From positions 1 through 49,256 of IMG/VR virus record IMGVR_UViG_3300027533_000028: 49,256 nt of DNA. One strand, given 5' to 3'. Each line of letters opens with the position of its first letter. Position 1 is the first letter of the stretch. The notes beneath the pieces were generated by a model. That model did not search any database. It was not told the DNA's origin and saw only the letters and a program-made list of their open reading frames with translations. Below, piece after piece: positions 18,368-47,795 of the stretch. The position numbers were made by a program, and so were the translations under genes. This stretch comes from a virus (Duplodnaviria > Caudoviricetes).

Positions 18368-18988
18368 TTAAAACAATGTTGATTGAGTTGTATTGTTCTT
18401 TCTTATTATTTCTCTTGCACAATCGAAAATATATAAACCCAATTCAGGATCAACCATATTTCGCAGTGTTTTACCCTTATCATCAATATCCTGGTCAGAT
18501 AAATTAAACCCGTAAACAGTAGAACTGTCTTTTATTTCTGTGTGTTTGCGCTCATCTGTAACCTCAAAATTTCCTATTCTGAAATTTGTCCAGTAAATAT
18601 GCCTGTGAAGTTTTGCGGTTGGTCTGATTAACGGCTCATAATACGGGATAACATTTTCAACACAAAATTTTCCTTTATGCCAATTCTGTAAAACAATAAT
18701 CTCCTGGTAAAGTTTCATGTCAGGATAAGTAATTTTATGAGTATTACTTACAATCATTGTTTGAAGTTTTGAATGTGAGGGGCAGGGGGGGCTTGCCCAA
18801 ATAAAATCAAAATTATCAATGTGATTAATCAAATATTCGTGAGCATCCCCGACAACTACATTATCGCCTGGAAAGTTTTGCTGATAAACCTTAGCGATTT
18901 TAGCATCATATTCAACTGCCGTTACCTCGCAATCTTCCCAAAGTTTACGGTTGCCGCCAATACCGGCATAAAGATTTAGTATTTTCAT
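18368..18988 (-). CDS. DNA cytosine-5 methyltransferase (short form)
   Basis: Motif I LYAGIGG, motif IV SPPC, motif VI ENV. Confidence 0.88.
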   Translation of the reverse strand: MKILNLYAGIGGNRKLWEDCEVTAVEYDAKIAKVYQQNFPGDNVVVGDAHEYLINHIDNFDFIWASPPCPSHSKLQTMIVSNTHKITYPDMKLYQEIIVLQNWHKGKFCVENVIPYYEPLIRPTAKLHRHIYWTNFRIGNFEVTDERKHTEIKDSSTVYGFNLSDQDIDDKGKTLRNMVDPELGLYIFDCAREIIRKNNTTQSTLF

Positions 18989-32734: not shown

Positions 32735-33330
32735 TTGGTAAGTGTATTAATTAATTCTTCTTCTTGTATTCTTTTTAATTCATCTAACTCATGACGGCTG
32801 TTTATAAATATCGGAGTGCCGCCAAAATGTAATTCCAAACCTTCTTTTTTGTCAGAGTTTTCAGAATCTAATCCTACAACATATTCGCGGTCTGAAATCT
32901 TTCTTGCTTCAATTCTTGCGGTCCCTTCCCCGATATTCTGACGGCTTCCATTAGCAAAGTTAGATTTTAAATTGCCAAATAAAGTAAGGTTTACAAAACC
33001 CCTTCTTCCGATTTGTTCTTTAAAATCTTTGTATGAAGTGAAATAACGTGAGGTATGCGATTTGCCGGATTTAAAAATTTTCTTTCCTGTCTTGCCAACC
33101 GGCTCTAATTTCTTCGGGCTTTTGGTTTTATCAACCATTGAAACGTAAAGAGGCTTTTTAGAATATTCGCCTATCTTTTCATTTTGGCTATTCTTGCCAT
33201 CTACAAAAATACGGGTTACCGCGAGTTCATGCACCGATTGAACAGCCAACCCAAATGGAATAAAATTTTCTAATGCCTTTTTTTGACATTCTAATTTATC
33301 TATGTACTGTTGCAGAGTTATGTCAGCCAT
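32728..33330 (-). CDS. Neck / tail completion protein
   Basis: Basic protein with FVNLTLFGNLK motif; start at 33330 (TAATG overlap). Confidence 0.6.
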   Translation of the reverse strand: MADITLQQYIDKLECQKKALENFIPFGLAVQSVHELAVTRIFVDGKNSQNEKIGEYSKKPLYVSMVDKTKSPKKLEPVGKTGKKIFKSGKSHTSRYFTSYKDFKEQIGRRGFVNLTLFGNLKSNFANGSRQNIGEGTARIEARKISDREYVVGLDSENSDKKEGLELHFGGTPIFINSRHELDELKRIQEEELINTLTKC

Positions 33331-34352
33331 TACGGTAGAACTAAAACAGTTCGATGCGGAGTTGTGCAGGAAAAACATTTTGCATCCTGCGGTATTTGCA
33401 TTTGAGCCAAAACAGAACTAAAACTTTCAGCGAATTTCTTTTCATAAAATGCCTGATCGACTTCTAATTTATCGCGGTTAATAGTTATTTTAGTATTTAC
33501 CCTTGTGTCTGCCGCTGCCTGTAAACCAAACAATAAAATGTTTGAGGCAATTTTATAAAGGATGGGTAAAGATAAAATATTAACATTCGCACAAATCCAG
33601 TTCTTATGATTGCATTGTAAAGAATAAACAAATGACATTCCGAAAGTATGATCAGAGCCAATCAAATCAGATAAGATAAATGTACCCGCTGACGAATACA
33701 TTGCTCGAGCAGTTACATATTGATTTGAATACACATTATTATTGCATCCGTTGCAACCTGAATTTTTTATATTGGTTTGGTAGGAATTAATTCCGGTTGT
33801 GTCGTAGCAAATAAAAAGTTTTGCGCTTTTTCTTTTTAAAGAAACAATTTCATTGAGGTTTAAAACAGATTGCTGACCTGCTACGGAAACCACATTTACG
33901 GTAGTGATTAAAGTTCCTGTCATTACATCGTAAACCCTGACAGGAATAGTTCCGGTAAAATCGGTTGCTAAAAGTATTTCGCTCCAGTAAAAATCTAAAT
34001 AAGAATTACTATTTAAGCATTCAATATAAATTCCTGACCATAAATTATTACCGGCTTTTGAAACTTTATTATCCTGAAGGAAACCAATTCGCATACCTTC
34101 AACAATCGAATTGGATTTATATTGACCGCCAAAGTGAGCATGGATTTCATTCGCTACCTGATTAACTGAAAACTGAATTTGTTTAGCAGTAAAATCTTCC
34201 GAATCAACATAATCTTTTGTTACTATCTGATCTACGGTATATTTTGAAATCCCGACATCATTAAGCCAATAACAGGATTTAATTTCAGGCGGTTCGCAAA
34301 CATCACGCAGCCCTACTAAATTTGTGAAGCAATCGGTATCGCAACTGTACAT
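33330..34352 (-). CDS. Head-tail adaptor (Cys-rich)
   Basis: First gene after the MCP terminator; 12 Cys. Confidence 0.55.
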   Translation of the reverse strand: MYSCDTDCFTNLVGLRDVCEPPEIKSCYWLNDVGISKYTVDQIVTKDYVDSEDFTAKQIQFSVNQVANEIHAHFGGQYKSNSIVEGMRIGFLQDNKVSKAGNNLWSGIYIECLNSNSYLDFYWSEILLATDFTGTIPVRVYDVMTGTLITTVNVVSVAGQQSVLNLNEIVSLKRKSAKLFICYDTTGINSYQTNIKNSGCNGCNNNVYSNQYVTARAMYSSAGTFILSDLIGSDHTFGMSFVYSLQCNHKNWICANVNILSLPILYKIASNILLFGLQAAADTRVNTKITINRDKLEVDQAFYEKKFAESFSSVLAQMQIPQDAKCFSCTTPHRTVLVLP

Positions 34353-34366
34353 ATTTTTTATTTTTT

Positions 34367-34401
34367 AAAAAGGGGAGGAAGAACTACTGAACCTCCCCCT
34401 T
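34367..34401 (-). terminator. Intrinsic terminator after the major capsid gene
   Basis: Minus strand GGGGAGG...CCTCCCC followed by TTTTT. Confidence 0.75.
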
Positions 34402-34426: not shown

Positions 34427-35533
34427 TTATACGTTCACTACTTTAAACTCGGTAATGTAATTCACTCCGTCCATGTAATCATTGACAGGGAACATATCAA
34501 AAGGCATCGTAACAAGTTTTGTTACAGTATGCCCGATGATAGAAACCTGACCGCAATTATCAGAGATAATGAAATTCATTCCGATTCCGGTAAGCGGATC
34601 AACCAAAAACAATGTATCATAATTACGTGCAAATTGTGTATTGCCTGCAACTACGCGAGATTGTTCTGATTGATATTCGTTAAATTCGATAACCTGGATA
34701 GCTCCTGGCTGCATCATGATTCCGCCTTCAACTCCCATGTAATATTGCAACCTGCGATCCCATACGATTGATTTGCCGTAAGCCGCCTGAATAGACGCAA
34801 GGTTTAAACCGTTATCAGCGCAGCAACCGACATTCATCAGTTTTGCATACTGCCAGTAAGACGCGCCTGTGAAGATTGCAGGACCGGAACAAAATTCCTG
34901 TTGCATGATAGCCGTATCAACATTAGCAACCGTAGCTGCCATCGGATCTTCTGAAGCATCCTTTTTTGTTTTTACAACTAACTGCTCTGAGTCATTTACG
35001 TAAATCGAACCGGATGAACCTGGAAAGGTCTGATGTACGGTGTCGTTCCAATTTCCATTTAAACCGGATAACTGAGAAACAAGTTTTGATTGTGTTTTTC
35101 TGCGAAGGGCAGAAATGAGTTGCGCGAATATTTTGGTAATGCGCTCAGGTGCTGATTGGCAGTTATACCAGAAATCCGTAGCATCATAAAGGGCTTCCAC
35201 CTTTTGTTTGATACAAGGATCAATAGTGTAAGTAGTAACCAAATCACCTCTTTTTGTGGTTGCGGTACAATCGCGCGTACATTCATCAACTTCAATTACT
35301 TCTGATTCAGGAATAATCTGATCATAGCGCATTTGAACCTGTTTAATTTTACCCATGCCATTATCAACAACTGCTTGCTGAACATTACGGGTATTTGTTT
35401 GAGAGTACAAGAATTGAACTATCGGTGAAACATCCGCCCTCATGGATGGGTCACAGTTCGCGGGAAGGAAATAATCATTCAGTTCCCTTTGGATTGCAGG
35501 GCAATCGTGTAAGCGTGTGCCAACTACTGACAT
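34427..35533 (-). CDS. Major capsid protein
   Basis: 368 aa, follows the scaffold-like gene and is followed by a terminator; size and position typical of an HK97-fold MCP. Confidence 0.75.
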   Translation of the reverse strand: MSVVGTRLHDCPAIQRELNDYFLPANCDPSMRADVSPIVQFLYSQTNTRNVQQAVVDNGMGKIKQVQMRYDQIIPESEVIEVDECTRDCTATTKRGDLVTTYTIDPCIKQKVEALYDATDFWYNCQSAPERITKIFAQLISALRRKTQSKLVSQLSGLNGNWNDTVHQTFPGSSGSIYVNDSEQLVVKTKKDASEDPMAATVANVDTAIMQQEFCSGPAIFTGASYWQYAKLMNVGCCADNGLNLASIQAAYGKSIVWDRRLQYYMGVEGGIMMQPGAIQVIEFNEYQSEQSRVVAGNTQFARNYDTLFLVDPLTGIGMNFIISDNCGQVSIIGHTVTKLVTMPFDMFPVNDYMDGVNYITEFKVVNV

Positions 35534-35565
35534 ATTTTTTAATAAATTAAGAATGTTAAAATTGA

Positions 35566-35683
35566 AAGTCTGTTAAAAAGCCTGACTTGGTGAGGCTACA
35601 AACTACGCTTTTTTAGGATGTTTAGCGTATGAAAAACAACAATAACAATTAGTTAATTTGGGTATGCCATTAACTACGGCAAC
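35566..35683 (-). ncRNA. Array of three tandem H-type pseudoknots in the capsid leader
   Basis: Units 35683-35650, 35640-35604 and 35599-35566, each with fully Watson-Crick S1 and S2. Confidence 0.7.
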
Positions 35684-35701
35684 GAGTGTAATTAAATTAT
35701 A

Positions 35702-36571
35702 TTAATTGCTGACTGCGTTTTGAGCGCGATCAGCGAGTACTTGCTCTTTTGATACATCAATCGGCTGATGTTGCCTTTTTTCAAAGAAAGAATTAATTCC
35801 GGTTGCGCCTGAGTTTGCCGGTGCGCCCCCTGATGGATTTAACTCATACACATTATTAGCAATTGCCTCTTCCTTATAAACCTCTTCTGGCGTTTTGAAA
35901 GTTCCGTGTGTTGTAGGATTTGGTATTCTCGCTCCGTTTTTATCGGTAATAAACCTCTCGCCCTTATCGTCTAAATCTATATTGTATTTAGCTTCAATCA
36001 GAGCAACAAAACCCGCCTTCTCTAAAGGAGTAATTTTAGTTTTATATTTAACTCCACCAACCAACTGCTCTTTTATTGTTTGCAGTTTTATTTGTTTTAC
36101 CTGAGTTCCAAACTGATTTTTCTCTTTCTCAAATTCATTCTTTTGATTAAGATTAACATTTTCCAAATCCTTAACCTTTGTATTTAACAGGTTATATTTT
36201 TCTTCCCATTCCTGCGCTCCCTTGTCTTTGTTCTTTGAATATTCACCTTTGACTTTTTCAATCGCGCCTTTTTGATTTTCGTTCACTTTGGCAAAAATAT
36301 CTTTAATGATTTGCTCGTTATCTTTCAGCTTGCCATTTTCATCTTTCAGAAAATCATCGGTAATATCAACTCCGTTTGATTTCGCTTCTTTAGATAAACG
36401 ATTTACAAACATGCCATTGATTTCGCTTTTCTTTTGCTTGTAAGCATCGGACACAAAGAAGTTATCCATTGTATCGTATTTCTTTGTAAATTCAGTTTTG
36501 AATGTGTCAATGTCTGCAACACTTTCAGGGATTCCGAGATAGGTTAAAAGGTCTTTTGCTTCAATAGCCAT
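35702..36571 (-). CDS. Capsid scaffolding protein
   Basis: Charged coiled coil with a Gly/Ser-rich C-terminal linker, directly upstream of the MCP. Confidence 0.7.
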   Translation of the reverse strand: MAIEAKDLLTYLGIPESVADIDTFKTEFTKKYDTMDNFFVSDAYKQKKSEINGMFVNRLSKEAKSNGVDITDDFLKDENGKLKDNEQIIKDIFAKVNENQKGAIEKVKGEYSKNKDKGAQEWEEKYNLLNTKVKDLENVNLNQKNEFEKEKNQFGTQVKQIKLQTIKEQLVGGVKYKTKITPLEKAGFVALIEAKYNIDLDDKGERFITDKNGARIPNPTTHGTFKTPEEVYKEEAIANNVYELNPSGGAPANSGATGINSFFEKRQHQPIDVSKEQVLADRAQNAVSN

Positions 36572-37011: not shown

Positions 37012-37097
37012 GGGAATCGAATTTTTGTAAAAGTATTAAAATAATTGAATTGTGCAAATGTTGATAAAAATATTTTATTAACATTGAAATAGTTGTT

Positions 37098-37172
37098 TAT
37101 ATTTGCATCGCTGTTTTATAGGTTAGGTTTTCATAGGTTAGTCCCCTTCGTTGCTCGCGAGGGGGATTTTTT
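37098..37172 (+). ncRNA. Putative small RNA (promoter + terminator)
   Basis: TATATTTG at 37098-37105; 2x ATAGGTTAG; terminator TCCCCTTCG / CGAGGGGGA + TTTTTT. Confidence 0.55.
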
Positions 37173-37174
37173 AT

Positions 37175-37278
37175 TATATTTGCAGTATAAACACTTTGTC
37201 CGAAGTGAATCAAAACATTTTATAAAGCCTACGTTGAAACTTGCGGACACAAGGAGTAAGCGTAGGTTTATTTTTTTT
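37175..37278 (+). promoter_or_regulatory. Promoter plus attenuator-like leader of the HNH gene
   Basis: TATATTTG at 37175-37182; stem AAGCCTACG / CGTAGGTTT + T-tract; inner loop CGGACA complementary to upstream TGTCCG. Confidence 0.55.
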
Positions 37279-37839
37279 ATGCAAACAAAAATTGAATTTA
37301 AGAATGAAATTTGGAAGGAAGTTGAAAACTTTGAGGGTAGATACGAAATAAGTAATTTCGGTAGGATTAAATCCATTGGCGGAAAGTTTTTGAAAGAAAC
37401 TATTTTAAAAACGTGTATTGATAGTGTTGGTTATTTTAAAACCACATTACGAAAAAAGCCATTGAAAAAACATCAGCGTATTCATGTTTTAGTTGCTGAA
37501 CATTTTTTGATTAAGCCGGATATTAAAAATGTTTGTGTTAATCACAAAGACGGTAATAAATTAAATAATCATGTTGATAATTTAGAATGGACTGATTTAA
37601 AAAATAATTGCCTCCATGCTTTACAAACCGGATTGTTTAATTTGAAAGGAGAAAATCATCCGCATAGTAAATTAACAAATGAAGCTGTTTATCATATTAA
37701 ATTTAATTCTAAAAATTTAACTAATACCGAAATTGCGAATTTGTTTTCAATGTCAAGACGGCAAATAAGGGATATTAGAAAAGGCGTGCATTGGAAGCAC
37801 ATAACAAAAGACTACAAACCCAATCTTTCAATTTCATAA
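37279..37839 (+). CDS. NUMOD4-HNH homing endonuclease
   Basis: Start MQTK at 37279; EIWKEV...YEISNFGRIKS (NUMOD4), VNHKDGNKLNNHVDNLEW (HNH), C-terminal HTH; opposite strand, overlaps the 3' end of the minor head gene. Confidence 0.9.
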   Translation: MQTKIEFKNEIWKEVENFEGRYEISNFGRIKSIGGKFLKETILKTCIDSVGYFKTTLRKKPLKKHQRIHVLVAEHFLIKPDIKNVCVNHKDGNKLNNHVDNLEWTDLKNNCLHALQTGLFNLKGENHPHSKLTNEAVYHIKFNSKNLTNTEIANLFSMSRRQIRDIRKGVHWKHITKDYKPNLSIS

Positions 37840-40988: not shown

Positions 40989-41960
40989 TTACATTTCACT
41001 TATTAACGAATTATTGCACCACCATCTTTCGGGATATTTCATATCTGCCAAAGTAATTTCTTCGCCTCTTTCCCTTTTATTTCTTAATTGCCGGAGATTA
41101 AAATAATTCCATTGCGGTTGTGAGTTCTTTTGTGTCGCAATTTCTACCATGATATGAGAAGCGTCTTTATTCGCTACTGCGCTGTAAATACTCCGTTGCA
41201 TCCCGAACATTTTTAACACTTGCGAATATCTTTCTTTACCCATCATCACATCATTACGGATCATTTTGGTATCGTTCAAATGATCGTTACTTTCATAAGT
41301 CAGCATTCTTTTATCATAGTAAAAAGAATATCCATGCCTGCCAACCCTGATCCCGAATGATTGATCTTCGTAACCAATGCCATCAGTTAAACAATCAAAG
41401 CCATTAACAACCAAACCCGCTTCTAATGGAATGCAGAATGAGCAACCATATAATTGATTTCCTGTAACTTTTGCTTTTTGATTATCAGGAGCTGCAGCCC
41501 AACGTGAATCATTACTTTCAAGTTCAAACGAAATCATTTTACCATCTTCAACAATCGGTTTATTGACTTTTTTATAAGCACCTAAAGCAATGTAATTATT
41601 ATTAGCCGCTTCGATTGCCGCCTCCAACCATCTGGCACCCAATACAGAGACATCATCGCAAAAAGCAATGTACGGATGTATCGCATAAACAAAGCCAGTA
41701 TTTCTTGCATTTGCAGCAGCGTAGTAAGGTTCTTTTGTAACCTGATGTTTACCCTGCCAAACTGATGGAAGCGGTGTGATATGTGAAGTAACAATGTTTA
41801 AATCATTGCTTAAATCAATACTTCTTTCTTCTGCCCAATAATCAACGACAATTAACTGCATAGGAAAATCAGGAAACAATTTCCTTTGATTTTTCAACCC
41901 ATCCCAAAACCATTGGAAGGGGTTGTTTCTGCGGCACGTTATGTAGACTATTGAAATCAT
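40989..41960 (-). CDS. GT2-like glycosyltransferase
   Basis: IVVD, AANARNTG, FCDD (DxD-like), NGFD...GYED motifs. Confidence 0.8.
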   Translation of the reverse strand: MISIVYITCRRNNPFQWFWDGLKNQRKLFPDFPMQLIVVDYWAEERSIDLSNDLNIVTSHITPLPSVWQGKHQVTKEPYYAAANARNTGFVYAIHPYIAFCDDVSVLGARWLEAAIEAANNNYIALGAYKKVNKPIVEDGKMISFELESNDSRWAAAPDNQKAKVTGNQLYGCSFCIPLEAGLVVNGFDCLTDGIGYEDQSFGIRVGRHGYSFYYDKRMLTYESNDHLNDTKMIRNDVMMGKERYSQVLKMFGMQRSIYSAVANKDASHIMVEIATQKNSQPQWNYFNLRQLRNKRERGEEITLADMKYPERWWCNNSLISEM

Positions 41961-42196
41961 GAACGATCTAACAAAATAAATTCCCTTGTAAATATTTTTT
42001 TATGGTCGGATATTACTCCTGAAAATTCATAAACAGGCTCTAAAGTTATTTTTAATTCACCATAGGGAATATATCCTTTTCCTATAAATTCTTTTACCTC
42101 TTTATTGAATTGGTAATCGTTTCCAGAAATTAAAACATAATCATCAATTGCTATGTCTAATTTAATATTATTCAAATGTGCCGCTACTGTTTTCAT
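41957..42196 (-). CDS. Hypothetical protein (DUF1737-like)
   Basis: FNKEVKEFIGKGYIPYG motif. Confidence 0.45.
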   Translation of the reverse strand: MKTVAAHLNNIKLDIAIDDYVLISGNDYQFNKEVKEFIGKGYIPYGELKITLEPVYEFSGVISDHKKIFTREFILLDRS

Positions 42197-42200
42197 ATTT

Positions 42201-42947
42201 TTATTTTATCGAAACATCAGGTTGATTAAAATAGTTATTCCATAATTTAAACAGGGTGTCGCGCCTGTCAGATTCTAAAATCCAGTCTTTAACCTTGATA
42301 GATGGATTATTAAAAGGGTGTTTAAAGGTTGTGTTTTTATCATCAATTATCCCCCATTTACGGGTATAATAATCGCGGTTATAAATTTCCGTCTGCTCAA
42401 TCATTGCCACATAATTAAGATTGTGCGGGTACGGTTTGCCATGTTTTATTTTAACAGGCTTTGTAATGTTATAAGGTTTGCCGCCTCCAACCCAAAACCT
42501 CATTCTCATTTCCCAATCTTCGTAATAAATAGGATAAAAGTTTTCATCAAATGTTCCGAAGTTCTTTACTCCGTTTCGTGTCCAGACAAAAATATCAAAG
42601 GCATTATTTTTATCAACGTAAATAATATCGGCATCTTTATGGTGCAAATCTGATTCTTTACAGATGGTTTCTAAAACTCCAGGTTGTAAATCCTGGTCCT
42701 CATTACAAATCAACCAGGCATCATCAATAAATATTTCAGGTGCAAGATTCCATGCACCCGCACAACCGAGATTGTAAGGTGAATCAATTATCCGCCATTC
42801 GGGATTTTTATCATTCCATTCATCCAAAGCCCCCTTTTTACCATTGTTAATAATAACTTTATATTCTATCGGGTAGTCAATAGAGTTTGCTAACCTGTTT
42901 AAAAGGTTCAAATCAAGAGCGAGTGAAGGAACTAACATGCTATTCAT
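42201..42947 (-). CDS. GT2-like glycosyltransferase
   Basis: NLGCAGAWN, CNEDQD, FDENFYPIYYEDWEMRMR. Confidence 0.82.
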   Translation of the reverse strand: MNSMLVPSLALDLNLLNRLANSIDYPIEYKVIINNGKKGALDEWNDKNPEWRIIDSPYNLGCAGAWNLAPEIFIDDAWLICNEDQDLQPGVLETICKESDLHHKDADIIYVDKNNAFDIFVWTRNGVKNFGTFDENFYPIYYEDWEMRMRFWVGGGKPYNITKPVKIKHGKPYPHNLNYVAMIEQTEIYNRDYYTRKWGIIDDKNTTFKHPFNNPSIKVKDWILESDRRDTLFKLWNNYFNQPDVSIK

Positions 42948-43570
42948 ATCGTCAATTCTGTATCTTTTTGGTTTACTAATCTTGGTAAAACTGTATAAAC
43001 TTTACATTTCGGATAAACTTCGTAAAACAGTAAAACATCAATCGGTTGTGAAGCATCCCTGCAATTTTCAAGTAAAACAGGAATCGCTTTTTTGGCAACG
43101 ATTAAAGCATGAGTGCAAAGCGGATATTTAACCTCATAAACATTTTCATTTACATGCGTTGTTTCCCTGCCTTCAGTACAGCAATTGCCCAATGAAAGAA
43201 AATCGAAATCTTTGGGAACATAATCTAAAGCTACCTCTAAATTATGCTTCCAATTATCACGAAACATACAATCATCTTCAATAATCATCCAGTACTCAAT
43301 TTCGGGATGTGATGCCATGACCGTATAAAGCAAATAATGCGATATGGTGCATCCTGTATTTCTTTGAGGTTGCAAGTAGTCTGAATCAGGCGAATCTCTC
43401 TTGTAAGCCCTGCATGATGTTATTCCGAACTTTTCAGCACCTATACCTGCAACTTCCATTACATGATAAATACCGATTTCAGAAAGATGGTTTTTAATAT
43501 AACTATACTTCTCCCCGACCTCAGGAAGATAAAGCAAAATTGGTTTTATGTCGTAACCTGATAATATCAT
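42944..43570 (-). CDS. GT25-like glycosyltransferase (LgtB/Lex family)
   Basis: GCTISHYLLY, IIEDD, THALIV, PIDV; start reassigned to 43570 (ATGA overlap). Confidence 0.8.
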   Translation of the reverse strand: MILSGYDIKPILLYLPEVGEKYSYIKNHLSEIGIYHVMEVAGIGAEKFGITSCRAYKRDSPDSDYLQPQRNTGCTISHYLLYTVMASHPEIEYWMIIEDDCMFRDNWKHNLEVALDYVPKDFDFLSLGNCCTEGRETTHVNENVYEVKYPLCTHALIVAKKAIPVLLENCRDASQPIDVLLFYEVYPKCKVYTVLPRLVNQKDTELTI

Positions 43571-44175
43571 CTTACTTTCCTGTGTATCTGCCAAGTTTCA
43601 TAATCTTCAACTAACTCCAAACCATAATCGGGTAATTTTGAGTAGGCTGTTTTTACCTCTTTCCAATGAGTGTCATCAGCTATCCAATACCCCCCGATTT
43701 TAACTTTTGGAATCCAATGATTTAACTCTGCTATTATGGTGCTTTCATTGTGTGATGAATCTTCATGTAAAACATCAATAGTATTATTTGCAAAAATAAA
43801 TGAAGCGTAATCGGTTCGTGAGCGGAAGGTGTCGCAGAAATCCTGAACCCTGTTTTTAAATATTTCTTTCTGGCAGCAATCATAGATGTATTTGAAATCA
43901 ACTGATTTATACCATTCATCATTTGCCTCTGAATTTTCGGGAGATAAACAGGCATCTACTTTCCATGCGTCAATTCCTAAAGCGAAACCCGAATTTTTTT
44001 CTTTGTGAGCCAATGCCATCGGAATAAGTGAACGACCTCCCCATGTTCCGAGTTCAACTGTAAATTGAGAATTGGTGTCAATAATTAATTGGTAGATGCG
44101 CTCCGCCTTTTCTGCGGTACACCATCCTTCCATCTGATTTATAATCGGGGCTAAGTTTATTTTCTCTGCAATCAT
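43567..44175 (-). CDS. Class I SAM-dependent methyltransferase (Methyltransf_24-like)
   Basis: VELGTWGGRS, IDAW, IDVLHEDSSH, GGYWIADD. Confidence 0.82.
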   Translation of the reverse strand: MIAEKINLAPIINQMEGWCTAEKAERIYQLIIDTNSQFTVELGTWGGRSLIPMALAHKEKNSGFALGIDAWKVDACLSPENSEANDEWYKSVDFKYIYDCCQKEIFKNRVQDFCDTFRSRTDYASFIFANNTIDVLHEDSSHNESTIIAELNHWIPKVKIGGYWIADDTHWKEVKTAYSKLPDYGLELVEDYETWQIHRKVR

Positions 44176-44438
44176 CTTTTGTTAATTTTATCAATAATGA
44201 CCTCGATTAACATTTTAATGTTAGCTTCTTCTGATTCTGATGTTAAATTGTTTCTGTCTACTAACATTTCTACGCTTTCAAGTTGTTCAGGGTAATTATC
44301 TGACTTTCCTAATTGTATTTTTTTGAATCCATCTAATCTGTATTTTACAACATTATTTCCACTATCATAAATATTTAATGTAAAATATACTTCATTCGTA
44401 TTTAATAAATCCAATAATGTTTTTCTCATTTTTTCCAA
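44172..44438 (-). CDS. Hypothetical protein
   Basis: 88 aa overlapping both neighbours. Confidence 0.55.
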   Translation of the reverse strand: MEKMRKTLLDLLNTNEVYFTLNIYDSGNNVVKYRLDGFKKIQLGKSDNYPEQLESVEMLVDRNNLTSESEEANIKMLIEVIIDKINKR

Positions 44439-45184
44439 TCTTTATGAGCTAACCAAACATCAAACGAACTGTGATAAGGGTAGTAAAGCAAAACATCTTC
44501 AGGATAAAAAAATCTTTTTTTACCATCAAATGAAATAACCTGGTAATCCATTTCAAAAATGTATTCTACGAAATCCCAAATTTTATCCCCTATCAATTCA
44601 ATCTGATTTGAAAACTCGCACATGATGACAGGTTTGTATTTTTTAATCGTTTCTTTTGAACCTTTTAAAATCCGAAGTTCGTAACCATCAGCATCTAATT
44701 TTATGAAGTCAATGGTATTGAGTTTTTTTGCCCCTACTTCTTTAACAAAAGAAAAGTAATTGTCGAGTGTCGCAAATTCAACTTTAAAGCCTTCTTTGCC
44801 CTTATAATCTACAGCAATGTTAATATCATCAGTTCCGTCATTGTCTTTTAAAGTCCATGAGGAGAAAACGGTTTGGTTTTCTTTAATATAATCTTTATCG
44901 GATAAAGCGATATTGTTTAATAAAACTCTGCTATCATTTTTAAACTTTTCATAAAGCGAATTGAAAACATCAGGAACCGGTTCGAAGCAATGAATTTCTT
45001 TAAATCCTTTTTCCAAAAACATTTCAGTATACCCGCCTAAGTTTGCACCAATATCTAAAGCAACTGTATTTTTATAGCGGTCAATTATCTGATTAAAAAA
45101 ATCATAGCCGGTTCCAAATAAAGTATTTTCTGAAAGATTCAGGGTAGCAAGTTTTTCTGCAGCAGTTAATTCTTTGGGTGTCAT
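44426..45184 (-). CDS. FkbM-family methyltransferase
   Basis: LDIGANLG, CFEP, TLD, IDFIKLDADGYE...LKG. Confidence 0.88.
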   Translation of the reverse strand: MTPKELTAAEKLATLNLSENTLFGTGYDFFNQIIDRYKNTVALDIGANLGGYTEMFLEKGFKEIHCFEPVPDVFNSLYEKFKNDSRVLLNNIALSDKDYIKENQTVFSSWTLKDNDGTDDINIAVDYKGKEGFKVEFATLDNYFSFVKEVGAKKLNTIDFIKLDADGYELRILKGSKETIKKYKPVIMCEFSNQIELIGDKIWDFVEYIFEMDYQVISFDGKKRFFYPEDVLLYYPYHSSFDVWLAHKDWKK

Positions 45185-47076
45185 GCTTCTACAGGTTTTT
45201 CGCTATTACATTCGACTAAATTCTGCAGCAACATTTCATCGGTAACGGTTAATCTTCGAATCTCGAAATCATTGTTTCCGAAGAAAACTTCCCAAGTGTT
45301 TTGGGTTCTGATTTGCCCTCCAGGAAACACAACATAAATTCGGGAATCTAATCGCGGGATATTAATATTAATTTTCTCCCCTGCGATTATCGGTTGTTTA
45401 GAAATATGCGTTACGTTAAAAGGAGGTTTGTTTTCAAACATATAAGCTCCGATAAAATATTGCCGTTCTTTTGTCGGCATGTCGAGCGATGAATGAAAGA
45501 AAGATAGATAATGTTCACCAACTAAAACGGGCGAAGTTCCGCCTCTTAATATTCCCCATTTCCACTCATGCGGAAATCTTGTTTCATGTGCTGTTTTCCA
45601 TTCCTGCCCGTTCATCTTTAAAATCGTATGCGGGAAGATTTGATAAACAGAGTAAAGTTCATTTTCATATTCAAAGAAAGTCCAATTCTTTTCAGTTCGG
45701 TCTTTATTAGGCTTATAGATATAAAAACTTTCTGTTGCCTGTAATGTTTCGGAGTTTATTTTAGCCTGTCCCATTTGGTAACCATCGCAGTATGATAAAT
45801 AAAGTTCATCATTAAAGATAAATAAACGCGGGTCTTCCACATGAAAACCTTTTGCATATTTCCGTAAATCAGAATGTAAATTTAAAAGTACATTTGTTGA
45901 TCTGATGGGTTGTAAATTATCATCCAATAAACACAAACCTAATTTAGTCGTTACACAAAACGGCTTTGATTCCATGCGGTAACAGAAATATTTTTTGCCT
46001 TTATATTCGATTGCTGAACCATTAAGCCAGTTAGAAACATTTAAAGTCCTGCGGTTCGGGTTTTCGTACTGCTGAATTAATTGAGTAGAATCAATTTTAA
46101 CTGTATTTTTAATCGGGTAGAATTGCGGGAATGTTGTCGGGCTAAGTTTCCCTCTTTTAGCATTGCTGTTATCATTAAAAGTTGAAACGAGCATCGGGTT
46201 TTTAGCATCTGCATGTTTGCCTGATGTAATATCATCAAACTTATAACATCGATTCATGCCTAATGGTCTGGTGTATTTTTTAATAATCAACCTGTCGTAT
46301 AAATCCCTATATGCAGGCTTTGTAAATCTTGCTCCTCCAAATACACATAAAATAAAATGCTGTTCTGCAATTACCCTATCCCCCCTTACCATATCTGTTT
46401 TATTCGCTAAAAATAACGCATCATTTCCTATGTGAGTATCTTTAATCTTAAGTTGAGCAAGTGAACCGGCTAAATAAAGTTCATCGGGTTGATTGCCTCC
46501 CCATTGGTAGCGGAGTTCATGTAATGGTATCGGGTTAGAAATGTTTTTTAAAATTAATTTATAAAGGCTTTCTGATGCTTCACATTTTTCAATAAACTGA
46601 ATGGAAGATTGCGGAGCCGGTAAAAAAGAATCTGATTTTAAATCAAAATGCTCCCATGCTTTTGAACGGTAAGCCCAAAGCAAATAACCCATATCATCAG
46701 GATCTGTTGAATAATAAGTATTGTATAGGTATGTTAAATAATGTTTCCCTGATGCGATACATCTATCTATCAATGGTTGAATGTTTTGAAATGCAAGCGC
46801 ATCCACATCTAAAACCAAATTGTAATCATATGGTAAATAATTATAAATTGAAACTTTAACTTTTGCAGGGTTGCTTAAATCGGTTTCATCTAATAAAACC
46901 TCTTTATCAAAGAAACTCATATCATAATAACCACGCTGAAATACCTTGCCATCATGCAGCACACAAATTTGGATGTTCCTGTCGAAGTGTTTGAGGGAAA
47001 TTGCCAAGTTGTATGCCGCACGAGCATAGCAAGGATCGCCAAAGGCAATCATAAAGATTCCGTTGGTTTTACTCAT
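45181..47076 (-). CDS. Bifunctional GT-A glycosyltransferase + five-bladed beta-propeller (GH130/GT91/GT108-like) protein
   Basis: N-terminal LVLDVD (DxD); C-terminal NGS...YR, EDPRLF, EKNWTFF, RGGTSP, FFHS, VVFPGG. Confidence 0.75.
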   Translation of the reverse strand: MSKTNGIFMIAFGDPCYARAAYNLAISLKHFDRNIQICVLHDGKVFQRGYYDMSFFDKEVLLDETDLSNPAKVKVSIYNYLPYDYNLVLDVDALAFQNIQPLIDRCIASGKHYLTYLYNTYYSTDPDDMGYLLWAYRSKAWEHFDLKSDSFLPAPQSSIQFIEKCEASESLYKLILKNISNPIPLHELRYQWGGNQPDELYLAGSLAQLKIKDTHIGNDALFLANKTDMVRGDRVIAEQHFILCVFGGARFTKPAYRDLYDRLIIKKYTRPLGMNRCYKFDDITSGKHADAKNPMLVSTFNDNSNAKRGKLSPTTFPQFYPIKNTVKIDSTQLIQQYENPNRRTLNVSNWLNGSAIEYKGKKYFCYRMESKPFCVTTKLGLCLLDDNLQPIRSTNVLLNLHSDLRKYAKGFHVEDPRLFIFNDELYLSYCDGYQMGQAKINSETLQATESFYIYKPNKDRTEKNWTFFEYENELYSVYQIFPHTILKMNGQEWKTAHETRFPHEWKWGILRGGTSPVLVGEHYLSFFHSSLDMPTKERQYFIGAYMFENKPPFNVTHISKQPIIAGEKININIPRLDSRIYVVFPGGQIRTQNTWEVFFGNNDFEIRRLTVTDEMLLQNLVECNSEKPVEA

Positions 47077-47637
47077 TTAGCTGAAATTGTATTGAATCGG
47101 ATCATCAATGTCTTTCCATGAAATCTGAACAACATATTTCTGCAAATTTTCATTGGTGTTCGGAAAATCGCGGTAAGCTGAAAGCGAAATGTCGGCATCA
47201 ATGAAAGTAACAAGCTGCGTTAATCCTGATGTGGTACATTCAATGAATGCAGCCCCTTCAAAATCGCGCCTTTTAGCCTGTGAGTAGAAATAAGAGTTTT
47301 CAGGAGTAACTTTGTAATCCTCAATGTCTGCGGTACGTGTGTAATTGATAATCTTTTTTGTACCGCAAGAAGTTGTCGGATCAGATTCAATCGGTGTAGG
47401 TGCGCCCATTCCTAATTTGATATTAGAAAGACGGACAGCACAACCCGAAGCAACAAGATCATCCCATTCAGCTGTATCGCCAGGATTCTGGATGCCGCAT
47501 CCGCAGTTTAGTAAATAAAGAGTGCTTGCCCCGCCTAACCTGCCACTCGCGGAACACGCCTCGATGGTTTCATTATAATCCGGTAAACTTACGCAGCCAT
47601 CATCCGCGCAGTTATAATCCGTTGTGTTATATGCCAT
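47077..47637 (-). CDS. Major tail (tube) protein
   Basis: 186 aa acidic and beta-rich, with its own promoter and a structured leader like the MCP; no other tube candidate in the genome. Confidence 0.6.
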   Translation of the reverse strand: MAYNTTDYNCADDGCVSLPDYNETIEACSASGRLGGASTLYLLNCGCGIQNPGDTAEWDDLVASGCAVRLSNIKLGMGAPTPIESDPTTSCGTKKIINYTRTADIEDYKVTPENSYFYSQAKRRDFEGAAFIECTTSGLTQLVTFIDADISLSAYRDFPNTNENLQKYVVQISWKDIDDPIQYNFS

Positions 47638-47670: not shown

Positions 47671-47743
47671 TTTGCTTTTTAAAATGCCTGCAAAATTTCC
47701 GGCAACAATTTCAGTTTTGGGTATGCTAACTGACAAAAGCAAC
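47671..47743 (-). ncRNA. Array of two tandem H-type pseudoknots in the tail-tube leader
   Basis: Units 47743-47711 and 47706-47671; the first shares the TACCCAA loop with capsid unit 1. Confidence 0.7.
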
Positions 47744-47787: not shown

Positions 47788-47795
47788 CAAATGTA
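47788..47795 (-). promoter_or_regulatory. Bacteroidota -7 promoter box (TACATTTG)
   Basis: Matches the TAnnTTTG consensus upstream of the tail-tube leader. Confidence 0.55.

Follow-up and report, generated by a model that had tools for sequence, protein, structure and literature searches.

Tandem compact pseudoknots with covarying stems in the capsid and tail-tube leaders of an uncultured phage family

Described pseudoknots and the array ahead of the capsid gene

The leader of gene 32 in phages T4, T2 and RB69 contains a compact coaxial H-type pseudoknot followed by A/U-rich single-stranded RNA up to the start. It is present in a single copy ahead of an SSB gene in a host using Shine-Dalgarno (SD) sites, and is a known operator bound by the product of its own gene. 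In T4, RNase E cuts the message at -71, the pseudoknot is located at about -67 at the 5' end of the processed mRNA, and this very stable message, the most stable one of T4, owes its stability partly to translation (PMC3014915). As stated in PMC10690425, Rfam contains no model of the gene 32 pseudoknot. In E. coli, RNase E enters at a 5' monophosphate and scans along the RNA; it bypasses hairpins, but coaxial pairing retards it in proportion to the length paired; in reporters, pseudoknots but not hairpins impede scanning, 11 coaxial pairs being a 'modest' and 15 a potent obstacle (PMC9943677). These reporters carried engineered single inserts of 8–15 coaxial pairs (BWYV, VPK, hTR and SARS-CoV-2 pseudoknots) in the 5' UTR with A/U-rich sites downstream. 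In ToxI arrays a single sequence is repeated, with a terminator and toxN located downstream (PMC5086642), and the preQ1-I riboswitch is a very small H-type fold with an A-rich L3 (PMC11625349). Structured RNAs upstream of phage head-assembly genes are represented by GP20-a, GP20-b and the candidates of Fremin 2023, whose 10,006 structures include some upstream of GP20 and major capsid genes (PMC10690425).

The window, i.e. the whole stretch of DNA analysed, comprises positions 1–49,256 of the IMG/VR record IMGVR_UViG_3300027533_000028; features described below lie on its minus strand unless stated otherwise. A 168-nt spacer separates a 289-aa gene (35702..36571), likely the scaffold gene on the basis of its position and without the motif in its own leader, from the 368-aa capsid gene (34427..35533). 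Within this spacer three tandem H-type pseudoknots are present precisely as written in an earlier note made from the sequence alone. Pseudoknot 1 (35650..35683 including the 5' GU; S1 start to S2 end 35681-35650) consists of a 4 bp S1, a 1-nt L1, an 8 bp S2 and a 7-nt L3. The corresponding values are 5 bp, 4 nt, 6 bp and 9 nt for pseudoknot 2 (35604..35640; 35638-35604), and 5 bp, 4 nt, 5 bp and 8 nt for pseudoknot 3 (35566..35599; 35597-35566), which ends 32 nt from the AUG. All three units also exhibit the claimed 5' GU (GT in the DNA), absent L2 and exclusively Watson-Crick-paired stems. The adjacent segment (35534..35565) is A/U-rich, free of G and without an SD site and constitutes the translation initiation region, as indicated by its sequence, the family profile and the Bacteroidota pattern in PMC6847099.

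A strict Watson-Crick H-type scan of both window strands gave 14 matches, three of them within the capsid spacer. The shuffled control proposed with the original claim left the array standing: when the spacer was shuffled 5000 times with its dinucleotides preserved, 4758 versions contained no unit, 242 contained one, and none reached even two. One plus-strand match (18952-18983) overlaps the beginning of a cytosine methylase gene in antisense orientation and has a GU-UG…CA pattern; it was taken as chance. A nested-only fold of the whole capsid leader favours a long-range alternative (-38.3 kcal/mol) with the start region 46% unpaired; as the program is unable to score pseudoknots, the case for the fold rests on covariation and not on energy.

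The 368-aa protein has no match in PHROG or Pfam, and its earlier designation as major capsid protein is upheld by a predicted structure (pLDDT 64) whose top Foldseek matches are phage capsids (best E 2.5e-4, TM about 0.3), indicating an HK97-type fold. A G/C hairpin with U run behind the gene (34367..34400), recognised by eye and similar to hairpins in relatives, is likely an intrinsic terminator. The two further units reported by the earlier reader were found 12 kb away from the capsid gene, ahead of a 186-aa gene (47077..47637) assigned to the tail tube protein on the basis of its model (pLDDT 84; best matches tail-tube/Hcp folds, E 6e-4). Tail-tube pseudoknot A (47711..47743) has 4+6 bp and an L3 identical to that of pseudoknot 1, and pseudoknot B (47671..47706) has 4+5 bp, a 1-nt L2 and a distance of 33 nt from the AUG.

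With ToxI, CptI and TenpI the phage units share the tandem arrangement of 34–37 nt H-type units, but they have no repeated sequence (46–69% identity among the five units) and have an A/U tract and then the capsid gene downstream. Compared to the gene 32 leader, they occur in one to three copies, precede capsid and tube genes and have neither an SD site nor a known binding protein. Relative to the RNase E reporters they are natural, tandem, ligand-free and likely from a different phylum. The upstream pseudoknot domain of tobamoviruses, located in the 3' UTR of these plant RNA viruses, also contains three small pseudoknots in a row and raises expression; the likeness lies in the serial order of small pseudoknots, whereas the phage units are located in an mRNA leader and have no Rfam match. 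In contrast to preQ1-I, the phage units are devoid of the UC/AC site before the P1 3' strand, usually lack L2 and have a fully paired S2, and there is no SD site to hide and no queuosine gene.

The earlier remark that no annotated family was known agrees with an Rfam 15 search, in which the window gave no match at gathering cut-off (best E 0.97 in the region); GP20-b (RF03003) reached 12 bits relative to a cut-off of 36.2, with only the 3' tail aligned and nearly all model positions unaligned. A capsid or tube leader pseudoknot element is not described in the literature searched, most subscription journals lying outside the search, and the main texts of PMC5737381 and bioRxiv 10.64898/2026.10.21.760802, as far as available, contain nothing on leader pseudoknots. 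The contig identifiers were not found in the searchable supplement tables of PMC10690425, which may not list contigs. It is possible that the element matches an unnamed candidate of that study, from whose available descriptions, rather than from alignments, it is set apart here. We consider the units an uncatalogued RNA family and a variant of the phage leader pseudoknot.

Conservation and covariation in relatives

Capsid relatives were taken from viral and metagenome contigs. At least one unit is present in 35 of 37 distinct capsid leaders, with capsid identities down to 24%, and the 55 unit matches compare with 3.4 in shuffles, the pattern having been written after inspection of these leaders and a few matches being terminator hairpins. 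At the same threshold nine matches (1.4 expected) were obtained in seven of 18 tube leaders, one of which is only 14 nt long and some of whose units had been inspected before the scan. In a large clade fetched later and two other loci, 57 of 58 distinct leaders have a unit at a lower threshold and without shuffle control, four of 80 clade loci being omitted due to missing upstream DNA. Non-matching leaders (L016, L017, L153 and many tube leaders) reveal smaller or bulged versions with the same start when read by eye. The tube leaders of L020, L022 and L112 and its kin have a short S2 apparently lengthened by kept G-A or A-A mismatches, possibly a non-canonical form of the fold.

The copy number per leader ranges from one to three. 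Among 165 scored units, from which the score threshold leaves out smaller ones, the coaxial pairing amounts to 8–14 bp, and to 8–10 bp in 126 of them. Of 133 units, 77 are devoid of L2.

Capsid, tube and a second capsid query had no match among 50,697 phage records and hence no cultured relative, and a portal query found only a weak match there to the Polaribacter P12002 phages (E 1e-3). No such leader precedes the capsid or structural genes of the cultured Bacteroidota phages P12002L (first 17 kb), phi19:1 (first 50 kb), 11b, B40-8 and P12024S, several of which have no space for it; scattered pattern matches elsewhere in these five phages look like chance. A scan of genome contigs found only two loci related to the capsid gene (L153 and L154), in MAGs labelled Coxiellaceae and Nanoarchaeota, which are probably mis-binned phage DNA.

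In a sequence-only alignment of 14 close leaders, 98% of 252 cells pair and 15 cells are changed on both sides, neither value being reached by any of 500 shuffles, while slid structures pair in 23–55% only. The rows are related, the covariation signal is confined to S2, and the eight S1 pairs are invariant. One contig of sequencing run X2, from a near-identical strain and compared with the window free of any search pattern, has nine differences within 35600-35629. Six of these convert three base pairs of S2 in unit 2 on both strands (U-A to C-G, A-U to G-C and G-C to A-U), with the remaining three in loop or linker. A variant of unit 1, found in X4 and X2 contigs from two studies at a contig depth of 3–4, has both S2 strands remodelled with 7–8 pairs kept. 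L003 and L032 have yet different S2 sequences in unit 1, and in unit 3 of L003 S2 is kept via a G-U pair. Across the whole clade a MAFFT alignment misregistered the stems between subclades, and the column scan was set aside.

Within 50 diverse units, 48 distinct S2 strands are found, and strands from different units pair in merely 83 of 2450 trials. When 54 diverse leaders were scanned unanchored, S1 started with a W-W pair followed by a G-C pair in 42 of the 60 matches, compared to 16% in shuffles, and GU precedes S1 in 29 of these 42 signature-bearing matches. The earlier formulation of a structure conserved without sequence is thus too strong: S2 is free in sequence, but at stem 1 a GU-WG…CW signature is kept. 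The pairing of each unit is supported by covariation in the aligned sequences, and the compensatory S2 changes in relatives argue for the proposed selection on RNA shape; the homologous covarying units suggested as a check exist before capsid genes down to about 25% protein identity. We conclude that the capsid-leader pseudoknots are real and under selection.

Gene specificity, promoter boxes and start region

The distribution of the units was determined in 1655 distinct gene leaders from the fetched loci by counting units which end 15–40 nt before the AUG. Such units precede 68 of 92 capsid genes (1.5 expected) and 18 of 52 tube genes (1.3 expected), but only three of 88 scaffold, none of 67 portal and one of 63 family 7 genes. 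The restriction to capsid and tube genes supports the earlier proposal of a cis-acting structured leader tied to high-copy virion proteins. Matches before the gene following the capsid gene (11 of 93) overlap the capsid terminator hairpin and were rejected. A 90-aa gene (family 19; L112:9538 and kin) has matches ending about 25–30 nt before the gene in nine of 26 leaders; these comprise two near-identical sequence types and apparently lie within the upstream reading frame.

The box TAnnTTTG, which we take to be the Bacteroidota -7 promoter element, was found in 75 of 110 capsid and tube leaders (15.8 expected), and in 50 of 52 tube leaders; in the window it is located upstream of the tube leader (47788..47795). 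In 43 of 59 cases the distance from the end of the box to the first unit is 14–27 nt. No such box precedes the capsid array of the window, which is probably part of a longer transcript ending at the post-capsid hairpin, and pseudoknot 1 is preceded by an A/U-rich stretch reaching back to the upstream stop codon (35684..35701), a candidate processing site. Two other box-bearing gene families have median box-to-AUG distances of 14 and 17 nt, compared to 105 nt for capsid and 76 nt for tube genes. In L112 and the clade L060–L139, the box lies only 14–17 nt before the AUG of the gene after the capsid gene and of family 7, from which near-leaderless late transcripts may be deduced; ahead of the former gene the promoter box overlaps the U-run of the terminator.

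The distance between the last unit and the AUG is 19–34 nt in 79 of 97 leaders, and in none is it below 19 nt. All 110 capsid and tube leaders are without an SD core; positions -3, -6 and -11 to -13 are enriched in A. About half of these leader rows belong to one clade, so that the box, distance and start-region counts overstate independence. A comparable A enrichment and a low-structure zone from -20 to +20, which agrees with the distance kept by the last unit, are described for start regions of Flavobacterium (PMC6847099). These Bacteroidota-type start regions are in line with the earlier suggestion of a host without SD-dependent initiation. From the promoter and start-region patterns only, the host of the phage family is likely a member of the Bacteroidota.

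Possible functions of the leader pseudoknots

In the reading we favour, to which we give about even chances, the capsid and tube leader pseudoknots are mRNA stabilisers which block host RNase E/G scanning from the monophosphorylated 5' end. Each unit would form an H-type pseudoknot with 9–12 bp of coaxial pairing in the mRNA. In most relatives the array begins 14–27 nt past the promoter box; in the window phage without a box it would form the 5' end of a fragment cut from the scaffold-capsid transcript. RNase E would be slowed by the coaxial pairing, the small serial units presumably being additive. The array ends just outside the 20-nt unstructured A/U-rich start region, where ribosomes have to load and which would otherwise be exposed to cleavage, and the post-capsid hairpin (34367..34400) would close the protected message. 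Owing to longer-lived messages, capsid and tube protein, the two most numerous subunits, would finally be made in larger amounts than scaffold, portal and connector.

RNase E passes hairpins and is slowed by coaxial length, which would offer a reason for pseudoknots instead of hairpins, for a free stem sequence and for serial copies, and its scanning behaviour would explain the position just upstream of the A/U-rich start region. The scored units provide at least 8 bp of coaxial pairing within a 5' UTR and ahead of A/U-rich sites, as expected of a scanning obstacle. The T4 gene 32 message, with its pseudoknot at the RNase E-processed 5' end, offers a precedent from a phage, though its pseudoknot is known as an operator. 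Several points count against a stabiliser. Most units have 8–10 pairs and would be weak obstacles in E. coli reporters, and the additivity of serial units is presumed, as tandem units are not among the constructs in the available text of PMC9943677. The scanning of RNase E/G is an E. coli finding; the four Bacteroidota tested possess RNase E/G and RNase Y, the latter being the main driver of decay (PMC10234816). Moreover, a generic obstacle needs no sequence, yet WG…CW is kept, which hints at a specific tertiary fold or a binding partner.

Alternatively, the GU-WG…CW face of the fold might dock on the SD-blind 30S subunit or bS1, or the pseudoknot might sequester upstream sequence and so insulate the start region. 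Such a translation enhancer, which would increase initiation at unchanged mRNA lifetime, is in our view unlikely, but the strongest of the alternatives. Consistent with it are the kept signature, the hard boundary of 19 nt from the AUG, the missing SD core in all 110 leaders and the size of the AUG-proximal unit: among 59 tandem pairs, many of them from one clade, it is the larger in 34 and the smaller in 7, with 18 pairs of equal size. However, the AUG distance varies between 19 and 34 nt, and a spread of 15 nt is more in keeping with an obstacle than with docking in a fixed register; distal copies are too remote for a single docking site, and other genes with short plain leaders manage without a unit. 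A stabiliser and the docking of a ribosome or host factor are compatible, and both can hold.

The anatomy of the leader, a 5' pseudoknot followed by an unstructured A/U tract, and the single signature common to two distant genes also recall the gene 32 operator. A capsid, scaffold or late regulator protein might correspondingly bind the pseudoknot and spread over the start region, and the synthesis of capsid and tube would in this way be adjusted to assembly. We regard this as improbable: loops and S2 are free in sequence, one element on two different genes misfits simple autoregulation, and no candidate RNA-binding protein was detected among the 25 and 20 proteins scanned.

An xrRNA-like block to a host 5'-3' exonuclease (RNase J) is considerably less probable still. 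The conserved GU 5' of S1 could be a threaded 5' end, and the host, coming from the environment, may be unlike the gut species examined; nevertheless, no 5'-3' exonuclease activity was found in four Bacteroidota (PMC10234816). Of the 5' nuclease barrier proposed in the earlier note the xrRNA-like part is therefore disfavoured, RNase E/G being the likelier target. A search for the RNase J family was undiscriminating, with matches even in the E. coli control, as was the RNase E/G control. A decoy for type III toxins (pseudo-ToxI), likewise raised in the earlier note, or a put-like antiterminator acting on RNA polymerase can hardly be maintained: the units resemble ToxI in size (34–37 nt) and H-type fold (PMC5086642) and are promoter-proximal in many relatives, but with 46–69% likeness they fail the sequence test set by ToxI repeats of one sequence, they are fixed before two structural genes with the capsid gene in place of toxN and no terminator before it, and the conserved terminator right after the capsid gene argues against antitermination.

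Returning to a stabilising or docking function, we tentatively propose, at slightly less than even chances, that virion stoichiometry is set at the RNA level: a modular GU-WG…CW pseudoknot present only on capsid and tail-tube messages would block RNase E/G or dock on the SD-blind ribosome, and its copy number would tune the output. If true, the phages would exploit the RNase E scanning-obstacle principle naturally and without a ligand, and would possess a direct route to capsid and tube subunits by the hundred from an operon which also encodes low-copy parts. The 35-nt cassettes and their natural compensatory variants can serve to probe two points, possible 5'-end scanning by the RNase E/G of Bacteroidota and the means by which expression is raised in a phylum ignoring SD sites, and the units could be portable stabilisers for expression in Bacteroides or Flavobacterium.

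Some further observations concern the surrounding genes. An HNH endonuclease gene (37093-37839, plus strand) runs opposite to the head module just upstream of a 145-aa gene, and no obvious promoter for scaffold and capsid was recognised near it. Between tail-tube gene and portal, genes for a glycosyltransferase, methyltransferases (FkbM, Methyltransf_24) and a glycoside hydrolase 130-like protein (40989-47076) may serve the modification of the virion or host surface. The products of the capsid gene (34427-35533), the next gene (33330-34352) and the tail-tube gene (47077-47637) are rich in cysteine, and a GCC motif is invariant in the capsid family, which suggests disulfide or metal cross-links.
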